A stretch of 64,000 bases of DNA from Escherichia coli (lineage in GTDB: Bacteria > Pseudomonadota > Gammaproteobacteria > Enterobacterales > Enterobacteriaceae), in NCBI RefSeq assembly GCF_009931435.1, contig NZ_CP043414.1; one strand, given 5' to 3'. The translations under genes and the position numbers were made by a program. Position 1 is the stretch's first letter; each line of letters opens with the position of its first letter. Shown here in pieces: positions 2,971 to 11,391 of the stretch. The notes below the pieces were generated by a model, which did no database searches, was not told the DNA's origin, and saw nothing but the letters and a program-made list of their open reading frames with translations.

Positions 2971-4224
2971 ATGTCGGGATCCAACACAGCAATCAGCCGT
3001 CGTCGTTTACTGCAAGGCGCGGGTGCCATGTGGCTATTGAGCGTAAGTCAGGTCAGTCTGGCTGCGGTCAGCCAGGTCGTGGCGGTGCGCGTCTGGCCTG
3101 CGTCCAGCTACACCCGTGTGACGGTAGAATCTAATCGTCAGCTGAAATATAAGCAGTTCGCGTTGAGTAACCCTGAACGCGTGGTGGTGGATATCGAAGA
3201 TGTAAACCTGAACTCAGTGCTCAAGGGGATGGCGGCACAAATTCGTGCTGATGACCCGTTCATCAAGTCGGCGCGCGTCGGGCAGTTTGACCCGCAAACC
3301 GTGCGGATGGTTTTTGAGTTAAAGCAAAACGTAAAACCGCAGCTGTTTGCCCTTGCTCCGGTCGCCGGGTTTAAAGAGCGTCTGGTGATGGATCTCTATC
3401 CTGCCAATGCTCAGGACATGCAGGACCCGCTGCTGGCGCTGCTGGAGGATTACAATAAAGGCGATCTCGAAAAGCAGGTGCCGCCTGCGCAGAGTGGCCC
3501 GCAGCCAGGCAAAGCAGGGCGCGATCGTCCGATTGTCATTATGCTTGACCCTGGCCATGGCGGCGAAGACTCCGGTGCGGTGGGGAAATACAAAACGCGT
3601 GAAAAAGACGTGGTATTGCAAATTGCCCGCCGTTTGCGCTCTCTGATTGAGAAAGAGGGCAATATGAAAGTTTACATGACCCGTAATGAAGACATCTTCA
3701 TTCCGTTGCAAGTGCGCGTAGCAAAAGCACAGAAACAGCGTGCTGACTTGTTTGTCTCTATTCATGCCGATGCCTTTACCAGTCGCCAGCCGAGCGGTTC
3801 ATCTGTGTTTGCGCTCTCTACCAAAGGTGCAACCAGTACCGCGGCAAAATATCTGGCGCAAACTCAGAACGCCTCGGACTTGATTGGTGGCGTGAGTAAG
3901 AGCGGCGACCGTTATGTCGACCATACTATGTTCGATATGGTGCAGTCGCTGACCATTGCCGACAGTCTGAAGTTTGGTAAAGCTGTGTTGAATAAGCTCG
4001 GTAAAATCAACAAGCTGCATAAAAATCAGGTTGAACAAGCCGGGTTTGCCGTGCTGAAAGCGCCTGATATACCCTCCATTTTGGTCGAAACGGCGTTTAT
4101 CAGTAACGTTGAGGAAGAACGTAAACTGAAAACGGCAACCTTCCAGCAGGAAGTTGCGGAATCAATCCTCGCAGGAATAAAAGCGTATTTTGCCGATGGG
4201 GCGACGCTGGCGAGAAGGGGATAA
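2971..4224 (+). CDS. amiC: N-acetylmuramoyl-L-alanine amidase AmiC (Tat signal SRRRLLQG)
   Basis: Tat motif, amidase_3 domain, 417 aa from Met at 2971; synteny with argA. Confidence 0.9.
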
Positions 4225-4394
4225 TGTTTTTATTTATTCAATGAATTTATATTTCGTTGAATAGATAATATTTACCTGAATATTAGACGTTGGTTTTGTG
4301 ACTGATGTCGAATATTTGAATGTCGGCTTGAAAAATAAGCCGACCATCTCTTTAATTAAGCACAATTCCGTGTAATGTATATGCATTAGTTAAT

Positions 4395-4470
4395 CATCTT
4401 GTAACTGTTAAATCAGGCAAGGCAATGTTTGAAGTAATTATTACTTCTGACGTGCCTTGCCTTTTTTTTT
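4395..4470 (+). promoter_or_regulatory. RAT-like element overlapping a rho-independent terminator (stem AGGCAAGGCA/TGCCTTGCCT 4415-4462, then T9) in leader of antiterminator-PTS operon
   Basis: Perfect 10-bp inverted repeat followed by 9 T; upstream GTAACTG..CAGGCAA resembles bgl RAT; sits directly 5' of a BglG-family gene. Confidence 0.5.
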
Positions 4471-4481
4471 GGAGCTATGGA

Positions 4482-5306
4482 ATGATCATCGAAAAAGTCA
4501 TGAACAATAATTGTGTACAGGCATCGATGAATGGACAGGAGGTTATCATTTCTGGGCCTGGCGTCGGTTACAACAAAAAATATGGAATGTCGGTCCCTGA
4601 GCATCCGGCTAACCGGATTTTTTATGTCAGAAATGAACAAAAAAATAAACTCTACAAATTGATTGAACATGTGGATATTGAGTATGTTTTTGTTGCCGAA
4701 AAAATAGTGCAATATGCAGAGAACAATCTCGAAAAAAATCTCAATCCATCGCTACTATTGATTCTTGCTGATCACATTTCGAATGCAATATCCCGAGTCG
4801 CTTCAGGCATACAAATTAATAATGTTTTCCTTGATGAAATCAAAGCGTTGTACAAAGCAGAGTATGCGATAAGTCGCGATGCATTAACTATCATTAATGA
4901 GCAATTTAGCGTTCAACTTCCTGATGATGAGATTGGTTTTATAGCATTGCATATTTTAAATAATTATGAAAATTCAGTTGATTATGAATCAGTACGGATT
5001 ATTGAGTTGTCGCAAATAATCACGGGGCTTATTGAAGTTGTTTATAACAGAAAGGTGGACAGAAGTTCATTTAATTATTCCAGGTTCATGATACACCTTA
5101 AATATTTTTCAAGTCGCGTATTATGCAATGAAAAAATAAAACAGAAAGATATTGGTGATCTCTATGAACAGTTTCTTGAGAAAGACATTCTGTTACAGCG
5201 CGCAATTCATGAAATTGAAAGGTATTTGTACGCCACTTTTAAATATGAATTGATTTTGGAAGAAAAACTATATCTCTCTATTCGCACCAAAGTATTAATG
5301 GACTAA
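4482..5306 (+). CDS. BglG/LicT-family transcription antiterminator (CAT RNA-binding domain + 2 PRDs)
   Basis: N-terminal MIIEKVMNNNCVQA.. CAT-like, PRD-like IALHI motif; start moved to ATG 4482 with GGAG RBS because ORF-track start 4425 lies inside the terminator loop. Confidence 0.75.
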   Translation: MIIEKVMNNNCVQASMNGQEVIISGPGVGYNKKYGMSVPEHPANRIFYVRNEQKNKLYKLIEHVDIEYVFVAEKIVQYAENNLEKNLNPSLLLILADHISNAISRVASGIQINNVFLDEIKALYKAEYAISRDALTIINEQFSVQLPDDEIGFIALHILNNYENSVDYESVRIIELSQIITGLIEVVYNRKVDRSSFNYSRFMIHLKYFSSRVLCNEKIKQKDIGDLYEQFLEKDILLQRAIHEIERYLYATFKYELILEEKLYLSIRTKVLMD

Positions 5307-5337
5307 TTATATATAACATTTATATGAGATAACCCGC

Positions 5338-6918
5338 ATGAAACAAAAGAAAGCCTGGAGTTTTTTTCAGAGCCTGGGAAAGGCATTTATGTATCCCATC
5401 GCTCTGCTAAGTGTATGTGGCATGATGTTAGGGCTAGGAAGTGGTTTAGCCAGCGATGATATGGCAAAATTAATTCCACTACTGGCTATTCCCGTAATTA
5501 AAACCATTCTTGATTTTATTGTTAGCCTTGGTTTGTTTGCCTTTGTCAATTTACCTGTATTGTTTGCGATAGCTATACCTCTGGGGTTATTAAAAGAGAA
5601 AGAGGATAAAGCCTATGGCGCTTTTTCTGGCTTAATTGGTTTCATGGCGATGCATCTGGGAACGAACTTTTATCTTAAACAACATGACTTATTGGTCGCT
5701 GCTGATCAAATGTCGACACATGGGCAAACCATTATTCTGGGAATCCAGTCCTACAATACCAGTGTGTTGGGTGGGATTATAGCAGGATTATTAGTCGCCA
5801 GTATGTATAAAAAGATCGTTAACTTACGTATTCCTGAATCATTAGGATTTTATAGTGGCCCACGCCTGGTGCCTATTATTACACTGATTGTGATGAGTGG
5901 ATTTGGTCTGATCATCCCTTTTATCTGGCCGCCATTTTTCAATCTTTTCATGCTCATTGGCCACTGGATTTCAACTTCCGGTCCTGTTGGCTATTTTTTC
6001 TATGCAGTCGCCGAACGCGTGACGATACCTTTTGGTTTAAATCACCTGGTGACGTCAGTTTTCCGCTTTACCCCCATCGGCGGATCGGCAGTGATCGGCG
6101 GCGAAGAGTATTATGGCACCCTGAACATGTTTATGGCGTACGTCAAAGAGAATGCGGTCATTCCGCTGGATTTGGCGGGGAAAATGGAACAGGGCAAACT
6201 GATGATTCAGTATGGTCTGGCTGGTGCCGCGCTGGCGATGTATCGCACTGCTCATGCTCAAAACAGAAAAGCTATCAAAGCATTGCTTATTTCCGGGGTG
6301 CTTACAGTCATTATTGGCGGCGTCAGCGAACCGATTGAGTTTCTGTTCTTATTTGTCAGTCCACTGCTGTTTGTCTTCCATGCCTTTATGAATGGATTCG
6401 CCAACATGGTCTTGCCATATATGGGCGTGAAGATGGGATTTACTGGCGATCTGATTCAATTTATTAGCTTTGGCGTATTGCGTGGCACAAGAACAGGTTG
6501 GCCAATAGCGGTGTGTGTCGAAGTGGCCTATTTCTTTATTTATTACTTTGTGTTCCGTTGGACTATTCTCAAATTTAACCTGATGACGGTAGGCCGTGAA
6601 GAGTCCAGTCCTGTCACGCTGAACGCTCATGAGGATACGGCTATAGCGGATATCCCAACGCTTGATAAATCAGAGCTGCAAGCAGCGGAGCAGATGGTTA
6701 AGGCACTTGGTGGTAAAGAGAATATTAAATCCCTGGATAATTGCGTAACTCGTTTACGTTTAACAATCGCAGATATGGGATTGATTGACGAGGCAGCAAT
6801 AAAAAGAGCTGGCGGAATTGCGGTTGTTAAACTTGATCAAAATACCCTACAAGTCATTATCGGTACTAAAGTCATCGCCTTGCGTCGGGATATGGATAAC
6901 TACATGGGGATATGCTGA
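5338..6918 (+). CDS. PTS EIICB component, glucose/maltose (MalX/PtsG) family; no EIIA domain
   Basis: Multi-TM EIIC region plus C-terminal EIIB with NCVTRLRL phosphorylation-site motif. Confidence 0.85.
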   Translation: MKQKKAWSFFQSLGKAFMYPIALLSVCGMMLGLGSGLASDDMAKLIPLLAIPVIKTILDFIVSLGLFAFVNLPVLFAIAIPLGLLKEKEDKAYGAFSGLIGFMAMHLGTNFYLKQHDLLVAADQMSTHGQTIILGIQSYNTSVLGGIIAGLLVASMYKKIVNLRIPESLGFYSGPRLVPIITLIVMSGFGLIIPFIWPPFFNLFMLIGHWISTSGPVGYFFYAVAERVTIPFGLNHLVTSVFRFTPIGGSAVIGGEEYYGTLNMFMAYVKENAVIPLDLAGKMEQGKLMIQYGLAGAALAMYRTAHAQNRKAIKALLISGVLTVIIGGVSEPIEFLFLFVSPLLFVFHAFMNGFANMVLPYMGVKMGFTGDLIQFISFGVLRGTRTGWPIAVCVEVAYFFIYYFVFRWTILKFNLMTVGREESSPVTLNAHEDTAIADIPTLDKSELQAAEQMVKALGGKENIKSLDNCVTRLRLTIADMGLIDEAAIKRAGGIAVVKLDQNTLQVIIGTKVIALRRDMDNYMGIC

Positions 6919-8093
6919 TGGATGTTTTTAATACTCCTATTTCCCGCAAAGGAACATATTGTACCCAATGGGACTTTTGCGAGGACAGATTTGGTGTAAA
7001 AGATGTATTACCATTCTCTATTTCAGATATGGATCTTCCGATACCGGAAGCTATCATCAGGGCATTAAAAAAACGTCTGGAACACCCGATTTTAGGGTAC
7101 AGCCGTTGGCAGCATGATGACTATCTGAATGCGATAGTCAATTGGTATCATCAACAATATAAAACTGAAATCAAACCAGAATGGATCACCTATAGCCCAA
7201 GCGTGATGTACTCCATTGCTAAAGCAATAGAGTTATTGACATCGCATGGTGATAATATTCTCGTTTTTACACCTGTCTATAATGCATTTTTTGATATAAT
7301 TAAACATAGCGAGAGAAATATTCTGACAGCCTCTTTGATTATAAAAAATGAGGGGGGCTACGCTATCAATTGGCAAGATTTTGATCTTAAGATTCAAAGC
7401 GCAAAGATGGTGTTATTATGTAATCCTCATAACCCGACAGGAACCGTCTGGTCGGAAGAAGATCTGCATAAAATCGCTGCAAGCTGTGCAAGACATAATG
7501 TCTGGTTATGTTCAGATGAAATTCACAGTGATTTTGTTTTTAATCGTAGCTTTACATCTGCGCTTAAAATAAAAAAAGAAAAAGTAGTGGTGTTTAATTC
7601 GATATCGAAGACATTTAATGTTCCTGCGCTAACAGGATCGTATATGATTTCAACTGACGATAATTTTAATCATGAGTTCAGAACGATATCAAGATATCGC
7701 GATTTTGTAAACTCCCCATCCGTACTGAATATAATTGCAACTATTATTGCCTATAACGAATGTGAGGGATGGTTAACGTCATTAAAGGCACATATTGCCT
7801 CTAACATTCAATTCACCCAGCAGTATCTGAACGAAAATACTCCAGAATTGATCGTAAGGCCTGCTGATGGTTGCTATTTTTCGTGGATAGATTGCTCTGC
7901 TATTGGTTATCCCTTTGATGAATTCTACAGTCGATTAATTCATGAAGGCAAAGTGGGCATTATGGCGGGGAATGTCTATGGAACGGAGGGGGAGGGCTAC
8001 CTTCGTCTGAACCTGGCCTGCGGTCGAGAAAAATTATATATGGGGCTTACGCGTCTTGCGAGTGTAATTAAAAATATTAATCAAGGAAAATAA
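6912..8093 (+). CDS. PLP-dependent C-S lyase / aminotransferase, MalY/PatB-like
   Basis: GTYCTQWDF..PFSISDMD..GYSRW and SISKTFN (PLP-Lys) motifs similar to E. coli MalY from memory; alternative start ATG 6918 overlaps PTS stop (TGATG). Confidence 0.8.
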   Translation: MLMDVFNTPISRKGTYCTQWDFCEDRFGVKDVLPFSISDMDLPIPEAIIRALKKRLEHPILGYSRWQHDDYLNAIVNWYHQQYKTEIKPEWITYSPSVMYSIAKAIELLTSHGDNILVFTPVYNAFFDIIKHSERNILTASLIIKNEGGYAINWQDFDLKIQSAKMVLLCNPHNPTGTVWSEEDLHKIAASCARHNVWLCSDEIHSDFVFNRSFTSALKIKKEKVVVFNSISKTFNVPALTGSYMISTDDNFNHEFRTISRYRDFVNSPSVLNIIATIIAYNECEGWLTSLKAHIASNIQFTQQYLNENTPELIVRPADGCYFSWIDCSAIGYPFDEFYSRLIHEGKVGIMAGNVYGTEGEGYLRLNLACGREKLYMGLTRLASVIKNINQGK

Positions 8094-8095
8094 AA

Positions 8096-8692
8096 ATGAA
8101 CAGCACGGATCTTATCCATCTCATTAAACATTTTATGCGTAACGAACATAAAGCAGTTGAAGAAGTTATTGATTCCCCCCTTTCGGAGGTCGCAAATTTA
8201 ATTAAAGTATTACAGTCTTGTCAGGGGAAAGTTGTTTTTATTGGTGTCGGTAAGTCCGGTATTATTGCCCGAAAACTCGCCGCAACATTTGCCAGCACTG
8301 GAACTCCCTCGTTTTTTGTTCACGGTACTGAAGCCGTACACGGCGATCTTGGGATGGTGGCGAAAGATGATGTTGTTATTCTTATTTCAAACAGTGGTGA
8401 GACGACAGAAATCCTGGCAACACTACCTAGTCTGAAAAAAATGGGTAATTATTTGATCTCCTTTACCCGCAGTCATCGCTCATCGCTTGCGATAAGTTGT
8501 GATTTATCCGTTGAAATTCCCGTAAAAAGTGAGGCGGATAATTTAGGTTTAGCGCCGTCATGCTCATCAACAGTCGTTCTGGTTGTTGGTGATGCGGTGG
8601 CGCTTGCGCTCTCCGAATTGAAAAAGTTTACTCGTGCTGATTTCGGCTTATATCATCCAGGAGGTGCGCTCGGTATTAAAGCAAACTCATAA
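8096..8692 (+). CDS. SIS-domain sugar-phosphate isomerase, KdsD/GutQ-like arabinose-5-phosphate isomerase lacking CBS domains
   Basis: GVGKSGIIARKLAATFASTGTPSFFVHGTEAVHGDLGM..HPGGALG closely resembles KdsD SIS domain; protein ends right after SIS domain (198 aa). Confidence 0.8.
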   Translation: MNSTDLIHLIKHFMRNEHKAVEEVIDSPLSEVANLIKVLQSCQGKVVFIGVGKSGIIARKLAATFASTGTPSFFVHGTEAVHGDLGMVAKDDVVILISNSGETTEILATLPSLKKMGNYLISFTRSHRSSLAISCDLSVEIPVKSEADNLGLAPSCSSTVVLVVGDAVALALSELKKFTRADFGLYHPGGALGIKANS

Positions 8693-8753
8693 TTTTAGAA
8701 TATAAAACAGTAACCGGTCACGCCATCTTTTGGGGTGGCGTTCATTGATGTGA

Positions 8754-9710
8754 GTGTCAGCTATGAAAAACGTTCTGGTCACCGTTCCCAGCTTTTCAGC
8801 GCGTTGTGTTTCTGCCAGCAAGCTGCTAAGAGAAAATCATTTTAACCTTATTATCAAGAATAATGTGGAGCATCTGGTTAAATCAGAATCCACAGTATTA
8901 CGAGAATCTATTTGCGCAGTCATTGCCGGAAAAGATTGTTATCAAGCGGATACGTTATCGCGACTACCAGGAGTGAAAATAATATCGAGATTCGGGACAG
9001 GGATTGATAATATTGATCTTCATACGGCTCGACAATCAGGTATTGTGGTCAATAATGCTGTTGGGATTAATTCAAATGCAGTCGCGGAATTTATCATTGG
9101 TCTTATTTTTGCGAGCATGAGAAATATCCCCGGTAGCTATCATGCGATGCAAAATGGTTATTGGGGCGAGTCGCATGGCTGCGAGTTACAAGGTAAACGT
9201 ATTGGCCTGCTTGGCTACGGCAATATTGGCAAAACACTGGCGAAAAGGTTATCTGGTTTTGATGTTGAGCTTTTAGCTTTTGACAAACAACCCGATTTCC
9301 AGGCCGCAGGCAAAGATGGAGTTCAGTTCGTATCAATTGAAGATATCTTTATGCAGTCTCATGTCATCATCGTTCTTTTGCCATTTTCTCCGGAGCTGGA
9401 GAACTTCATTAGTCATAAATATTTGTCGATGATGCGCAATGGTGCTCTTATCATCAACGCCGCAAGGGGAAAGTTGCTGGATGAGGGTGCTTTACTTCAG
9501 GTAATTGAAGAACGAAATGTTTTTGCAGCGCTGGATGTGTTTAGCTCTGAACCGCTAGCGCAATTTAGCCCATTGCTACATGCCAGGAATATCATTACAA
9601 CGCCGCATATTGCGGCCGCCACCGTTGAGTCATACCAGCAAACCGGGATATACGTTGCCAGGTCGATAATAGATTTCTTTGCAGGAAGGGAGATAAAAAA
9701 CGTGCTGTGA
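8754..9710 (+). CDS. D-isomer-specific 2-hydroxyacid dehydrogenase family protein (NAD-binding)
   Basis: GLLGYGNIGKTLAKRL Rossmann motif and overall family layout. Confidence 0.8.
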   Translation: MSAMKNVLVTVPSFSARCVSASKLLRENHFNLIIKNNVEHLVKSESTVLRESICAVIAGKDCYQADTLSRLPGVKIISRFGTGIDNIDLHTARQSGIVVNNAVGINSNAVAEFIIGLIFASMRNIPGSYHAMQNGYWGESHGCELQGKRIGLLGYGNIGKTLAKRLSGFDVELLAFDKQPDFQAAGKDGVQFVSIEDIFMQSHVIIVLLPFSPELENFISHKYLSMMRNGALIINAARGKLLDEGALLQVIEERNVFAALDVFSSEPLAQFSPLLHARNIITTPHIAAATVESYQQTGIYVARSIIDFFAGREIKNVL

Positions 9711-9736
9711 GTTCAGCTAAGGAAGATTTCAGGTAC

Positions 9737-9771
9737 AAAAAAACCGCAATTTGTGAAACACATTGCGGTTT
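9737..9771 (-). terminator. Rho-independent terminator of tRNA-fMet operon (possibly bidirectional)
   Basis: AACCGCAAT/ATTGCGGTT stem, followed by T-run on minus strand, directly 3' of last tRNA. Confidence 0.5.
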
Positions 9772-9788
9772 ATCAGCATCATAAGTGT

Positions 9789-9865
<77 letters not shown>

Positions 9866-9898
9866 TCACCGTACTGCTTTACTTCATCAAATTTTGAT

Positions 9899-9975
<77 letters not shown>

Positions 9976-10008
9976 TCACCGTACTGCTTTACTTCATCAA
10001 ATTTTAAT

Positions 10009-10085
<77 letters not shown>

Positions 10086-10293
10086 TCCGTGGATGCGCAC
10101 TATACTCCGCTCGCGTTTTCATGCAACCTTTTTTTTACCCAGATCACGGATTTGGTATGATTTTGAGCAAAAACAAATCACTAAAGCCTGTTTTTTGTGC
10201 AAAATTTGCGTCAGGGAGAGGCTGCTCATTTCATTAAACGCAGCGGTTTGTTATCTTCATTGCGCCTTATTTTTTAAACTGAAGAAGAGAACA

Positions 10294-11391
10294 ATGAAAG
10301 GACGTTGGGTAAAGTACCTTCTTATGGGCACGGTTGTGGCAATGCTTGCCGCCTGCTCTTCCAAACCAACCGATCGCGGACAGCAATATAAAGACGGGAA
10401 ATTTACCCAGCCTTTCTCTCTGGTAAACCAGCCAGATGCCGTTGGCGCGCCAATTAACGCCGGTGATTTTGCCGAGCAAATTAACCATATCCGTACTTCG
10501 TCACCGCGTCTGTATGGCAACCAGAGTAATGTTTATAATGCGGTGCAGGAGTGGCTACGCGCAGGCGGTGATACCCGCAATATGCGTCAGTTCGGCATTG
10601 ACGCCTGGCAGATGGAAGGTGCCGACAACTATGGCAACGTGCAGTTTACGGGCTATTACACGCCTGTCATTCAGGCGCGCCATACCCGTCAGGGCGAGTT
10701 CCAGTATCCTATTTACCGTATGCCGCCAAAACGTGGTCGTCTGCCGTCTCGTGCGGAGATCTACGCGGGAGCATTGAGCGATAAATACATCCTCGCTTAC
10801 AGCAACTCTCTGATGGATAACTTCATTATGGATGTGCAGGGTAGCGGGTATATCGATTTTGGTGATGGCAGTCCGCTTAACTTCTTCAGCTATGCCGGAA
10901 AGAATGGTCATGCCTATCGCAGTATTGGTAAGGTGCTGATTGACCGTGGCGAAGTGAAAAAAGAAGATATGTCGATGCAGGCGATTCGTCACTGGGGTGA
11001 AACACACAGTGAAGCCGAGGTTCGCGAGCTGCTGGAACAGAACCCGTCTTTCGTCTTCTTTAAACCGCAATCTTTTGCTCCGGTGAAAGGGGCAAGTGCG
11101 GTGCCGCTGGTTGGTCGCGCTTCAGTTGCGTCCGATCGTTCCATTATCCCGCCTGGTACAACCTTACTGGCAGAAGTGCCGCTGCTGGATAATAACGGCA
11201 AATTTAACGGTCAGTACGAACTGCGGCTGATGGTGGCGCTGGATGTCGGTGGTGCAATCAAAGGCCAACACTTCGATATTTATCAAGGTATCGGGCCGGA
11301 AGCCGGACACCGCGCAGGTTGGTACAACCACTATGGACGTGTTTGGGTGCTGAAAACCGCCCCGGGCGCAGGTAACGTCTTTAGCGGCTGA
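10294..11391 (+). CDS. mltA: Membrane-bound lytic murein transglycosylase A (lipoprotein)
   Basis: MKGRWVKYLLMGTVVAMLAACSS lipobox; 365 aa; ORF-track N-terminal extension overlaps tRNA genes and is rejected. Confidence 0.9.
   Translation: MKGRWVKYLLMGTVVAMLAACSSKPTDRGQQYKDGKFTQPFSLVNQPDAVGAPINAGDFAEQINHIRTSSPRLYGNQSNVYNAVQEWLRAGGDTRNMRQFGIDAWQMEGADNYGNVQFTGYYTPVIQARHTRQGEFQYPIYRMPPKRGRLPSRAEIYAGALSDKYILAYSNSLMDNFIMDVQGSGYIDFGDGSPLNFFSYAGKNGHAYRSIGKVLIDRGEVKKEDMSMQAIRHWGETHSEAEVRELLEQNPSFVFFKPQSFAPVKGASAVPLVGRASVASDRSIIPPGTTLLAEVPLLDNNGKFNGQYELRLMVALDVGGAIKGQHFDIYQGIGPEAGHRAGWYNHYGRVWVLKTAPGAGNVFSG

Follow-up and report, generated by a model that had tools for sequence, protein, structure and literature searches.

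A RAT/terminator leader precedes a malXY-like PTS and C-S lyase operon in the accessory genome of Escherichia coli

The malI-malXY system of E. coli K-12 pairs a PTS EIICB of the glucose family (MalX) with a PatB/MalY-type lyase (MalY) in a single operon. MalX lacks an EIIA domain, and the operon is regulated by the divergently transcribed LacI-type repressor MalI; it has no RAT/terminator leader and no SIS or dehydrogenase gene. A general C-S lyase role is usually assumed for both E. coli MalY and C. difficile MalY. MalY additionally carries a MalT-binding patch, and its residues at the MalT interface are A84, C181, D182, E185, S218, N219, A221, and R222 (PMC10427625). Changes to A84, C181, E185, S218, N219, and A221 were functionally important in mutagenesis screens, and the MalY of Vibrio furnissii, which differs at the interface by just D182C and S218V, is unable to repress (PMC10427625).

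Antitermination systems of the bglG-bglF-bglB, glcT-ptsG, and licT type instead encode a CAT-PRD1-PRD2 protein, a RAT that overlaps a leader terminator, and a cognate EII in the operon. Such a system is combined with a malXY-like pair in Firmicutes. The C. difficile operon (CD3030-CD3027 and an antiterminator, with malY as CD3029) and its Clostridium relatives have the order antiterminator-EIICB-lyase-SIS, an EIICB/lyase overlap, and RAT-terminator leaders. C. difficile MalY has been reported to be a cysteine desulfhydrase in vitro (PMC6143707) and to be encoded by an essential gene (PMC6143707, PMC5767170), and the homologous operon has been reported to be highly induced in biofilm. In pathogenic E. 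coli, genes c3405-c3410 of strain CFT073, located in PAI-CFT073-metV, were described as a maltose/glucose-type PTS cluster (PMC2831201), and "GR19" of the APEC strain BEN2908 is the same cluster, with homologies to SerA, KdsD, MalY, MalX, and BglG (PMC12928451).

The window analyzed here is a stretch of 64,000 nucleotides from E. coli (assembly GCF_009931435.1, contig NZ_CP043414.1). A first-pass annotation of it singled out an EIICB gene (5338-6918) and a MalY-type lyase gene (6912-8093), and both open reading frames are present on the plus strand, the second beginning at 6912 or 6918. The pair belongs to a five-gene, 5.5-kb operon for an antiterminator, the EIICB, the lyase, a SIS protein, and a 2-hydroxyacid dehydrogenase, with the following features:

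4225-4396, plus strand: putative promoter region of the operon, from an alignment of seven enterobacterial leaders and a terminator scan
4397-4422, plus strand: RAT-like antiterminator target CTTGTAACTGTTAAATCAGGCAAG, its 3' half overlapping the 5' arm of the terminator
4416-4470, plus strand: leader intrinsic terminator, with arms GGCAAGGCA (4416-4424) and TGCCTTGCC (4453-4461) and T9 (4462-4470)
4482-5306, plus strand: BglG/LicT-family transcription antiterminator, 274 aa, with CAT RNA-binding domain, PRD1, and PRD2 (Pfam)
5338-6918, plus strand: PTS EIICB of the glucose family, 526 aa (Pfam PTS_EIIC and PTS_EIIB)
6918-8093, plus strand: PatB/MalY-family PLP-dependent C-S lyase, 391 aa (TIGR04350)
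8096-8692, plus strand: KpsF/GutQ-type sugar-phosphate isomerase, a single SIS domain without CBS domains, 198 aa (Pfam SIS)
8763-9710, plus strand: D-isomer-specific 2-hydroxyacid dehydrogenase, phosphoglycerate-dehydrogenase-like, 315 aa from the ATG at 8763 (Pfam 2-Hacid_dh_C and 2-Hacid_dh)
9744-9771, no strand assigned: hairpin CCGCAAT..ATTGCGG set between an A7 and a TTT tract, identified by inspection of the sequence and comparison with the amiC-metV spacer of K-12
9789-10085, minus strand: metZWV tRNA genes, convergent to the operon

The operon is the cluster already described in the literature as CFT073 c3405-c3410 and BEN2908 GR19. The CFT073 cluster has the same five genes in the same order and the same position beside amiC, with 91.8-98.5% amino acid identity, and its leader differs from that of the window at 6 positions over 257 nt. 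In CFT073 the operon is separated from the metV tRNA genes by a type VI secretion cluster, whereas in the window it abuts the tRNA genes directly. The two alleles show 3-10% nucleotide difference, in line with the flanking core genes.

Compared with K-12, the operon insert replaces the 73-bp amiC-metV spacer. Its GC content is 32-47%, against 52-57% in the flanks. The 9744-9771 hairpin, at the insert's right border, is likely a terminator that acts in both directions, on the operon and on the convergent metZWV genes. Integrase, transposase, and flanking direct repeats were looked for at the borders of the insert and none was seen; a mobile-element origin was rejected on these grounds, as the insert simply takes the place of the spacer. 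Of 5426 complete E. coli genomes, 1688 carry the operon and 5423 carry malXY itself. The K-12 pair is thus core and the operon accessory, and the lyase is indeed a second MalY-like protein, as the first-pass annotation supposed. The locus is probably a horizontally acquired accessory operon of E. coli that serves PTS-dependent uptake of a carbohydrate and the first step of its metabolism.

The EIICB contains a PTS_EIIC domain (residues 14-353) followed by a PTS_EIIB domain (residues 452-484) and, like MalX, has no EIIA domain. Its EIIB motif DNCVTRLRL, with Cys470, aligns with the MalX motif DNCITRLRL. The MalX models TIGR02004 and PRK10110 are its best-scoring NCBIfam models, yet both scores fall below the cutoffs (536.6 against 632.2 and 525.9 against 665). 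Within E. coli, the paralogues nearest to the pair are MalX and MalY of K-12 (42% and 36% identity), while EIICBs from identically ordered operons in Firmicutes and Enterobacter share 64-76% identity with the EIICB of the window. By these sequence comparisons, the EIICB is related to MalX but sits in a distinct clade. The proposed echo of malX-malY therefore stands as homology; the parallel in gene overlap does not, since malX and malY of K-12 are actually 9 nt apart.

The EIICB and lyase genes of the window do overlap, and the TGATG at 6916-6920 is exact. Within 6910-6924, which reads atATGCTGATGGATG, the EIICB stop TGA occupies 6916-6918 and an in-frame ATG occupies 6918-6920. The upstream ATG at 6912 was rejected as the lyase start and is probably wrong: it is unconserved (ATA in CFT073, ACG in E69), and the RefSeq start lies at the position equivalent to 6918. 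T(G/A)ATG is conserved, and so is a GGGGA/GGAG Shine-Dalgarno sequence 7 nt upstream. An overlap of 1 or 4 nt is by itself common in operons. The EIICB/lyase stop/start overlap recurs, however, in related operons of Citrobacter, Atlantibacter, C. difficile, and Clostridium, so the pairing is conserved and is no chance adjacency.

The lyase matches TIGR04350 with 366.2 bits (cutoff 340) over residues 6-386, and its best PDB match is MalY (1d2f/8bob). The positions that align with MalY K233, the Schiff-base (PLP) lysine, and with Y121, N173, D201, H204, S230, S232, and R365 are invariant across 12 aligned sequences. Judged by these residues, the lyase is predicted to be a catalytically intact PatB/MalY-type PLP enzyme. 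No other protein of the module is as weakly conserved as the lyase (43-51%, compared with 64-76% for the EIICB), in keeping with a looser functional tie to the substrate of the transporter. The C. difficile structures 4dq6/4dgt were rejected as structures of the operon lyase: they score like MalY (287 bits), unlike the 48%-identical operon homolog, and probably represent another paralogue. Lyase-SIS fusion proteins of 550-592 aa were likewise rejected as Rosetta-stone evidence. They form single-member clusters, and the intact E69 allele (L004) encodes lyase and SIS protein in different frames; the fusions are probably frameshift or assembly variants.

The SIS protein strongly matches just the SIS portion of the KdsD and KpsF models (TIGR00393 191.8, cutoff 203.7). 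It matches PDB 5uqi/5vhu, a 198-aa "phosphosugar isomerase", with E = 9e-121, and it is 97% identical to its ortholog c3406 of CFT073, which the title of Mosberg et al. 2011 names as a CBS-less arabinose-5-phosphate isomerase. The window protein likewise has no CBS domains, and arabinose-5-phosphate isomerase activity is predicted for it. The dehydrogenase, 92% identical to the CFT073 protein, is confined to the operon versions of Escherichia, Citrobacter, and Atlantibacter.

The antiterminator scores above the Pfam cutoffs for CAT_RBD (54 bits) and PRD (92 bits) and aligns over PRD1 and PRD2 of the LicT structures 1tlv, 6twr, and 1h99. LicT and GlcT are its top NCBIfam models, but it falls below the equivalog cutoffs of LicT (227.7, cutoff 300), GlcT (178.6, cutoff 320), and BglG (104.5, cutoff 322); on these scores, it is a subfamily separate from all three. 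Three of the four PRD histidines are conserved (His98, His157, His205), and the fourth position is Arg268; K-12 BglG has Asn there. Details of phosphorylation control may differ, because the scores are below the equivalog cutoffs and the fourth PRD histidine is missing. A start at 4425, taken from the ORF list, was rejected because it lies inside the terminator hairpin; the RefSeq start is 4482.

The region 5' of the RAT contains a terminator-like hairpin of amiC (4322-4344), a conserved TGTGA (4296-4300) that is possibly a CRP half-site, and a block GTGTAAtGTATA at 4370-4381, about 20 nt 5' of the RAT, that is conserved in the seven-leader alignment. An Rfam scan of 4150-10150 at E <= 1 returned three tRNAs only. 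Since no curated family matched the leader, the bgl leaders of K-12 served for a direct comparison, in which the RAT resembles the bgl RATs GGATTGTTACTGCATTCGCAGGCAAAACC. The pattern TTGTWACTGN6CAGGCAAG matches once in the window, at the RAT itself, where 0 matches are expected. The RAT is invariant in the aligned leaders of E. coli and Citrobacter, and in two relatives (L017, L018) its upper stem ACTG..CAGG becomes ACTA..TAGG, a compensatory change. The consensus fold of seven orthologous leaders contains two compensatory pairs in the terminator stem, GC to AU.

The leader terminator was missed by the consensus terminator scan because its hairpin is long, and it was detected by folding. The RNA of 4370-4485 folds with -35.3 kcal/mol (z = -4.75), and 0 of 200 shuffled sequences were as stable. 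The antiterminator Shine-Dalgarno sequence GGAG (4471-4474) is immediately 3' of the T9 tract. BglG-type control by this leader is well supported as a prediction, because the RAT and terminator are conserved with compensatory changes. An antiterminator in place of MalI, as the first-pass annotation proposed, thus agrees with the CAT_RBD and PRD domains and the leader, and no LacI-type gene was found near the EIICB-lyase pair.

The leader is placed differently from those of related systems. As in bgl, the RAT/terminator precedes the antiterminator gene, but here it is single, and the 31-nt spacer between the antiterminator and EIICB genes contains no second one, in contrast to the bgl, glcT, and licT systems. 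The cognate EII is a MalX-like EIICB and not a beta-glucoside EIIBCA. In C. difficile and Clostridium, RAT-terminators lie between the antiterminator and EIICB genes, as a fourfold tandem in C. difficile, while that of the window lies only upstream of the antiterminator gene. The proteins of the C. difficile locus (L015, equated with the CD30xx tags by gene order and content and not by direct look-up) share 68% (EIICB), 48% (lyase), and 52% (SIS) identity with those of the window. The C. difficile and Clostridium versions include an EIIA-Glc gene and lack the dehydrogenase; across the Firmicute versions, the EIIA-Glc gene lies in or beside the operon. The same gene order is found in two Clostridium contigs, another Firmicute, and an Enterobacter-like contig.

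By analogy with the BglG/LicT/GlcT paradigm, transcription would start upstream of 4397 and, without inducer, stop at the leader terminator (4416-4470). Transport of the substrate would drain phosphate from EIIB at Cys470, leaving PRD1 of the antiterminator no longer phosphorylated. The antiterminator would then dimerize, bind the RAT at 4397-4422, and block the terminator. Read-through would cover the antiterminator gene and the four genes downstream, which amounts to positive autoregulation; since the terminator lies ahead of even the antiterminator gene, induction would depend on basal read-through. Lacking an EIIA, the EIICB presumably takes its phosphate from Crr (EIIA-Glc). Translation of the lyase would be coupled to that of the EIICB, the SIS protein would act as a CBS-less arabinose-5-phosphate isomerase, the dehydrogenase may be a lineage-specific addition, and the lyase would not be expected to bind MalT.

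The lyase was proposed to engage in regulatory cross-talk with the mal regulon. In its strongest form, this idea casts the lyase as another "trigger enzyme" of the MalY type, one that would bind MalT and repress the maltose regulon whenever the operon is induced. Homology to MalY, the same genomic pairing with a MalX-like EIICB, and the status of MalT and malXY as core E. coli functions speak for it. At the eight MalT-interface positions, however, the lyase has E, E, E, H, L, K, K, and K. None of the eight is identical to MalY, only D182E and R222K are conservative, and three of the replacements are lysines where MalT R143 and R147 dock; two interface changes accompany the loss of repression by V. 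furnissii MalY (PMC10427625). The patch is also unconserved in every clade member and in the Neobacillus MalX-clade partner, which suggests that MalT binding arose late, as a trait peculiar to enterobacterial MalY. Cross-talk of the lyase with the mal regulon is thus unlikely on present alignments, and its action as a MalT-binding repressor is highly improbable. An operon that has fallen silent in E. coli like bgl, cryptic or in decay and without current function, would account for the AT-rich foreign DNA, its absence from 69% of complete genomes, the frameshifted dehydrogenase of the closest genome, and the IS elements inside the cluster in two of the genomes listed. All five genes are nevertheless intact in the window and under strong purifying selection (dN/dS 0.03-0.12 across the five, about 0.1 for the lyase), and the regulatory RNA is conserved, which makes such decay quite improbable. 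Loss of c3405-c3410 reportedly made CFT073 less fit in the urinary tract of mice (Lloyd et al. 2009; Mosberg et al. 2011), which also counts against a silent operon.

An operon for PTS uptake and first-step carbohydrate metabolism still has to accommodate its lyase. The lyase may be a general cysteine or cysteine-S-conjugate lyase, such as a cysteine desulfhydrase or a cystathionase, merely co-expressed with a glucose/maltose-like PTS, so that the operon would be a redundant glucoside transporter with housekeeping-like enzymes. Its score above the PatB-family cutoff, its faster evolution than that of the EIICB, and the reported desulfhydrase activity and essentiality of CD3029 in the matching C. 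difficile operon (PMC6143707, PMC5767170) are consistent with this account. Harder to explain without a functional link is that the EIICB-lyase linkage and its coupling are kept across Proteobacteria and Firmicutes under three regulator types: MalI in K-12, BglG-type in the window, and RpiR-type in Neobacillus. A related lyase also occurs in a different PTS cluster of Granulicatella, beside an M20 peptidase. A general lyase is for these reasons a possible but somewhat doubtful explanation. The EIICB-lyase(-SIS) module, shared by C. difficile and uropathogenic E. coli and echoed in malXY, could alternatively form an undescribed catabolic route, in which the PTS imports and phosphorylates a sugar with an amino-acid moiety, the lyase removes the moiety by PLP-dependent beta-elimination, and the SIS isomerase feeds the sugar phosphate into central metabolism. 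The conserved linkage and coupling under three regulator types and the Granulicatella lyase beside a PTS and an M20 peptidase support such a route indirectly, and it is put forward tentatively, as an unlikely but specific proposal. No published pathway that connects PatB/MalY lyases with PTS cargo turned up in a literature search. S- or O-glycosyl cysteine or serine and an amino-sugar acid are examples of substrates that would suit the chemistry of this route.

This accessory operon is already catalogued in extraintestinal pathogenic E. coli, and the analysis removes the idea of MalT cross-talk from it. The regulatory RNA is also delimited closely enough to be used in a reporter-based screen for the inducer. 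Why a C-S lyase travels with a glucose-family PTS is the same question that malXY has posed since 1991. The E. coli and Firmicute versions of the operon are one family, and results in one organism should therefore transfer to the other. If the module does form a catabolic route for sugars with an amino-acid moiety, the native function of MalX and MalY would be revealed as well.

The window has the gene order argA - amiC - insert - three tRNA-fMet genes - mltA - tcdA. The insert is a 5.5-kb block that extends from the amiC stop codon to about position 9740, at a site where the K-12 amiC-metV interval consists only of a 73-bp spacer. It has a GC content of 32-47%, compared with 52-57% in the flanks, and neither an integrase nor flanking direct repeats were found at it. 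Its five genes were assigned by domain and family model matches.

Features of the insert and its flanks
1409-2740, argA
2971-4224, amiC (stop codon 4222-4224)
4482-5306, + strand, CAT+PRD antiterminator
5338-6918, + strand, PTS EIICB
6918-8093, + strand, PatB/MalY-family PLP lyase
8096-8692, + strand, single-SIS-domain KpsF/GutQ-like isomerase
8763-9710, + strand, D-2-hydroxyacid (phosphoglycerate-like) dehydrogenase
9789-10085, - strand, three tRNA-fMet genes
10294-11391, mltA

The block is best read as an inducible PTS operon that takes up a carbohydrate, is controlled by its antiterminator and came from a low-GC donor by horizontal transfer. The dN/dS values of 0.03-0.12 for all five genes indicate that the operon is maintained by purifying selection. 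In the flanks, a mechanically called 459-aa ORF at 10012-11391 is an artefact, as its first ~90 codons cross the tRNA-fMet gene at 10009-10085 and the spacer before the real mltA start at 10294. The core genes amiC, argA, and mltA diverge by 4-7% in nucleotide sequence from both K-12 and CFT073, which are only about 2% apart from each other; amiC shows 93% DNA and 100% protein identity, with 86 differences from CFT073, all synonymous. Probably either the window belongs to a divergent lineage of E. coli or recombination has affected the region.

Among 5426 complete E. coli genomes, 1688 carry the block, and the locus has already been described in the literature. The same five genes stand beside amiC in CFT073, where their proteins are 91.8-98.5% identical to those of the window and the leader is nearly the same. 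In that strain the cluster, c3405-c3410, is listed as part of PAI-CFT073-metV under the name "PTS system, maltose/glucose specific" (PMC2831201), and its SIS gene, c3406, was studied by Mosberg et al. GR19 of APEC strain BEN2908 shows the same five homologies: SerA 32%, KdsD 52%, MalY 36%, MalX 41%, and BglG 30% (PMC12928451). The SIS protein matches PDB 5uqi/5vhu at E = 9e-121. Lloyd et al. 2009 and Mosberg et al. reportedly found that CFT073 lacking c3405-c3410 is less fit in the mouse urinary tract, that the c3406 product is an active arabinose-5-phosphate isomerase, and that loss of c3406 by itself makes no difference. In CFT073 the operon and the metV tRNA genes are separated by a complete type VI secretion cluster (L003, the CFT073 region, 1-24290). 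Window 9711-9788 has no such cluster, and the tRNA genes come right after the operon; PTS operon and secretion cluster are thus separable modules of "PAI-metV".

Some genomes show signs of occasional decay of the operon. The dehydrogenase is annotated as frameshifted (7539-8485 in L001, the region of the genome closest to the window, 99.7% identity), and ISVsa5-family and ISCro1-family elements disrupt the cluster in two poultry isolates. A few E. coli/Shigella database entries of 550-592 aa (P0002-P0005, P0009, P0010) combine the aminotransferase-fold lyase and SIS domains in one protein, apparently a lyase-SIS fusion of an 87%-identity allele; these single-member clusters may be frameshift or assembly variants.

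The leader contains a ribonucleic antiterminator target (RAT)-like element, CTTGTAACTGTTAAATCAGGCAAG, at 4397-4422, the sole RAT-type pattern match in the 64-kb window (0 expected by chance) and similar to the genuine K-12 bgl RATs GGATTGTTACTGCATTCGCAGGCAAAACC retrieved for comparison. The 3' half of the element runs into the 5' arm of a long hairpin, GGCAAGGCA...TGCCTTGCC (4416-4461), which is followed by T9 at 4462-4470 and directly by the antiterminator ribosome-binding site. The RNA fold of 4370-4485 has an energy of -35.3 kcal/mol (z = -4.75). Across seven aligned enterobacterial leaders the RAT is almost invariant and the terminator stem has two compensatory GC to AU changes, while in two more distant loci (L017 and L018) the RAT upper stem changes from ACTG..CAGG to ACTA..TAGG, also compensatory; together, these patterns support both structures. 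An ORF-list antiterminator start at 4425 was rejected because it lies inside the leader terminator, and the start is 4482. A CRP-like half-site, TGTGACTGATGTCGAA, lies at 4296-4311, about 80 nt upstream of the presumed transcription start, and may indicate catabolite control; its TGTGA half is kept in Escherichia, Citrobacter, and Atlantibacter leaders except one (Citrobacter FP75: TGTGT).

The antiterminator aligns to LicT across CAT, PRD1, and PRD2 and keeps the equivalents of LicT His100, His159, and His207; the fourth is Arg268, where K-12 BglG has Asn. Only 31 nt separate it from the EIICB gene, which points to control from a single site ahead of the antiterminator gene and implies positive autoregulation. 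Firmicute versions have a second RAT-terminator before the EIICB gene, whereas the window operon has none. The C. difficile locus (L015, GCA_945909635.1) contains four tandem RAT-plus-terminator units between these genes (5974-6392; period 104 nt, 92% matches), an unusual set of serial antitermination checkpoints. By analogy with the BglG/LicT/GlcT paradigm, EIIB would phosphorylate PRD1 and thereby inactivate the antiterminator, and Crr would serve as EIIA for the EIICB. Firmicute operons carry an EIIA-Glc gene within or beside them, consistent with the use of Crr.

The first-pass annotation had proposed a malXY-like pair under BglG-type control with possible cross-talk to the mal regulon, which proved half right: the pairing and the mode of control hold, the latter through the CAT-PRD antiterminator and conserved leader, but MalT cross-talk is unlikely. 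The positions given for the pair and for the TGATG overlap (6916-6920) hold exactly, with one correction: the lyase starts at the ATG at 6918, not 6912. The 6912 ATG is missing in CFT073 and other alleles, RefSeq annotates the 6918 equivalent, and the T(G/A)ATG overlap and a GGGGA/GGAG Shine-Dalgarno 7 nt upstream are conserved. The overlap is kept in Citrobacter, Atlantibacter, and C. difficile (TGATG or TAATG) and in Clostridium (ATGA), whereas K-12 malX and malY are separated by 9 nt.

The pair is homologous to malXY. Full-length alignment of the EIICB with K-12 MalX gives 42% identity, and the protein's best NCBIfam matches are MalX models, yet it falls under their cutoffs; the lyase is 36% identical to MalY, its best PDB match, and passes the PatB-family model. 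As 5423 of 5426 E. coli genomes have malXY as well, the window pair is a true extra copy. Its nearest relatives, however, are not malXY. Citrobacter and Atlantibacter relatives share 68% (lyase) and 84-86% (EIICB) identity; outside these genera and Escherichia, the closest lyases (43-51%) occur in Clostridioides difficile, Terrisporobacter, Clostridium, and other Firmicutes. The order antiterminator - EIICB - lyase - SIS recurs in five of seven inspected contexts, with identities of 64-76% for EIICB, 48-65% for SIS, and 33-42% for the antiterminator, and members of this clade are usually under BglG-type control. The C. difficile locus, assigned by gene order and content, has the order described for CD3027-CD3030 (malY = CD3029), reported as a "putative glucose-maltose PTS" operon. 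In contrast, a Neobacillus locus combines a true MalX-clade EIICB (60% to MalX) and a lyase with an RpiR-type regulator, and in Granulicatella the lyase lies next to a fructose-type PTS, an Mga-like regulator, and an M20 peptidase. This variety of regulators indicates that the EIICB-lyase link is old and outlasts regulator exchanges.

In the MalT-MalY cryo-EM structure, MalY contacts MalT through A84, C181, D182, E185, S218, N219, A221, and R222; mutagenesis screens found A84, C181, E185, S218, N219, and A221 functionally important, D182A/E185A/S218A MalY no longer blocks MalT oligomerisation, and V. furnissii MalY (D182C, S218V) does not repress despite high homology (PMC10427625). The window lyase has E, E, E, H, L, K, K, and K at these positions (0/8 identical), placing lysines at N219, A221, and R222, where MalT R143 and R147 dock, and the patch is conserved in no aligned member of its clade. 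The PLP lysine and seven further active-site-region positions are invariant in the alignment. Together with a lyase dN/dS of about 0.1, these residue patterns suggest that the protein most likely works as an enzyme and does not bind MalT, which makes MalT cross-talk unlikely. Unspecific cross-talk via shared Crr is possible, as the EIICB, when transporting, could inhibit the maltose transporter by inducer exclusion and reduce cAMP.

What the lyase does for the operon can be read in two ways. It may act on the imported compound, and its persistent linkage and coupling to the EIICB gene argue for a functional tie. A looser model, in which the lyase is merely co-expressed with the PTS, is favoured by two points: the lyase evolves faster, and its C. 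difficile counterpart is reported to be a generic cysteine desulfhydrase (PMC6143707). What the PTS imports, and why its operon includes a C-S lyase, are questions that this locus shares with malXY; the mapped RAT/terminator leader makes them approachable by a reporter-based inducer screen.
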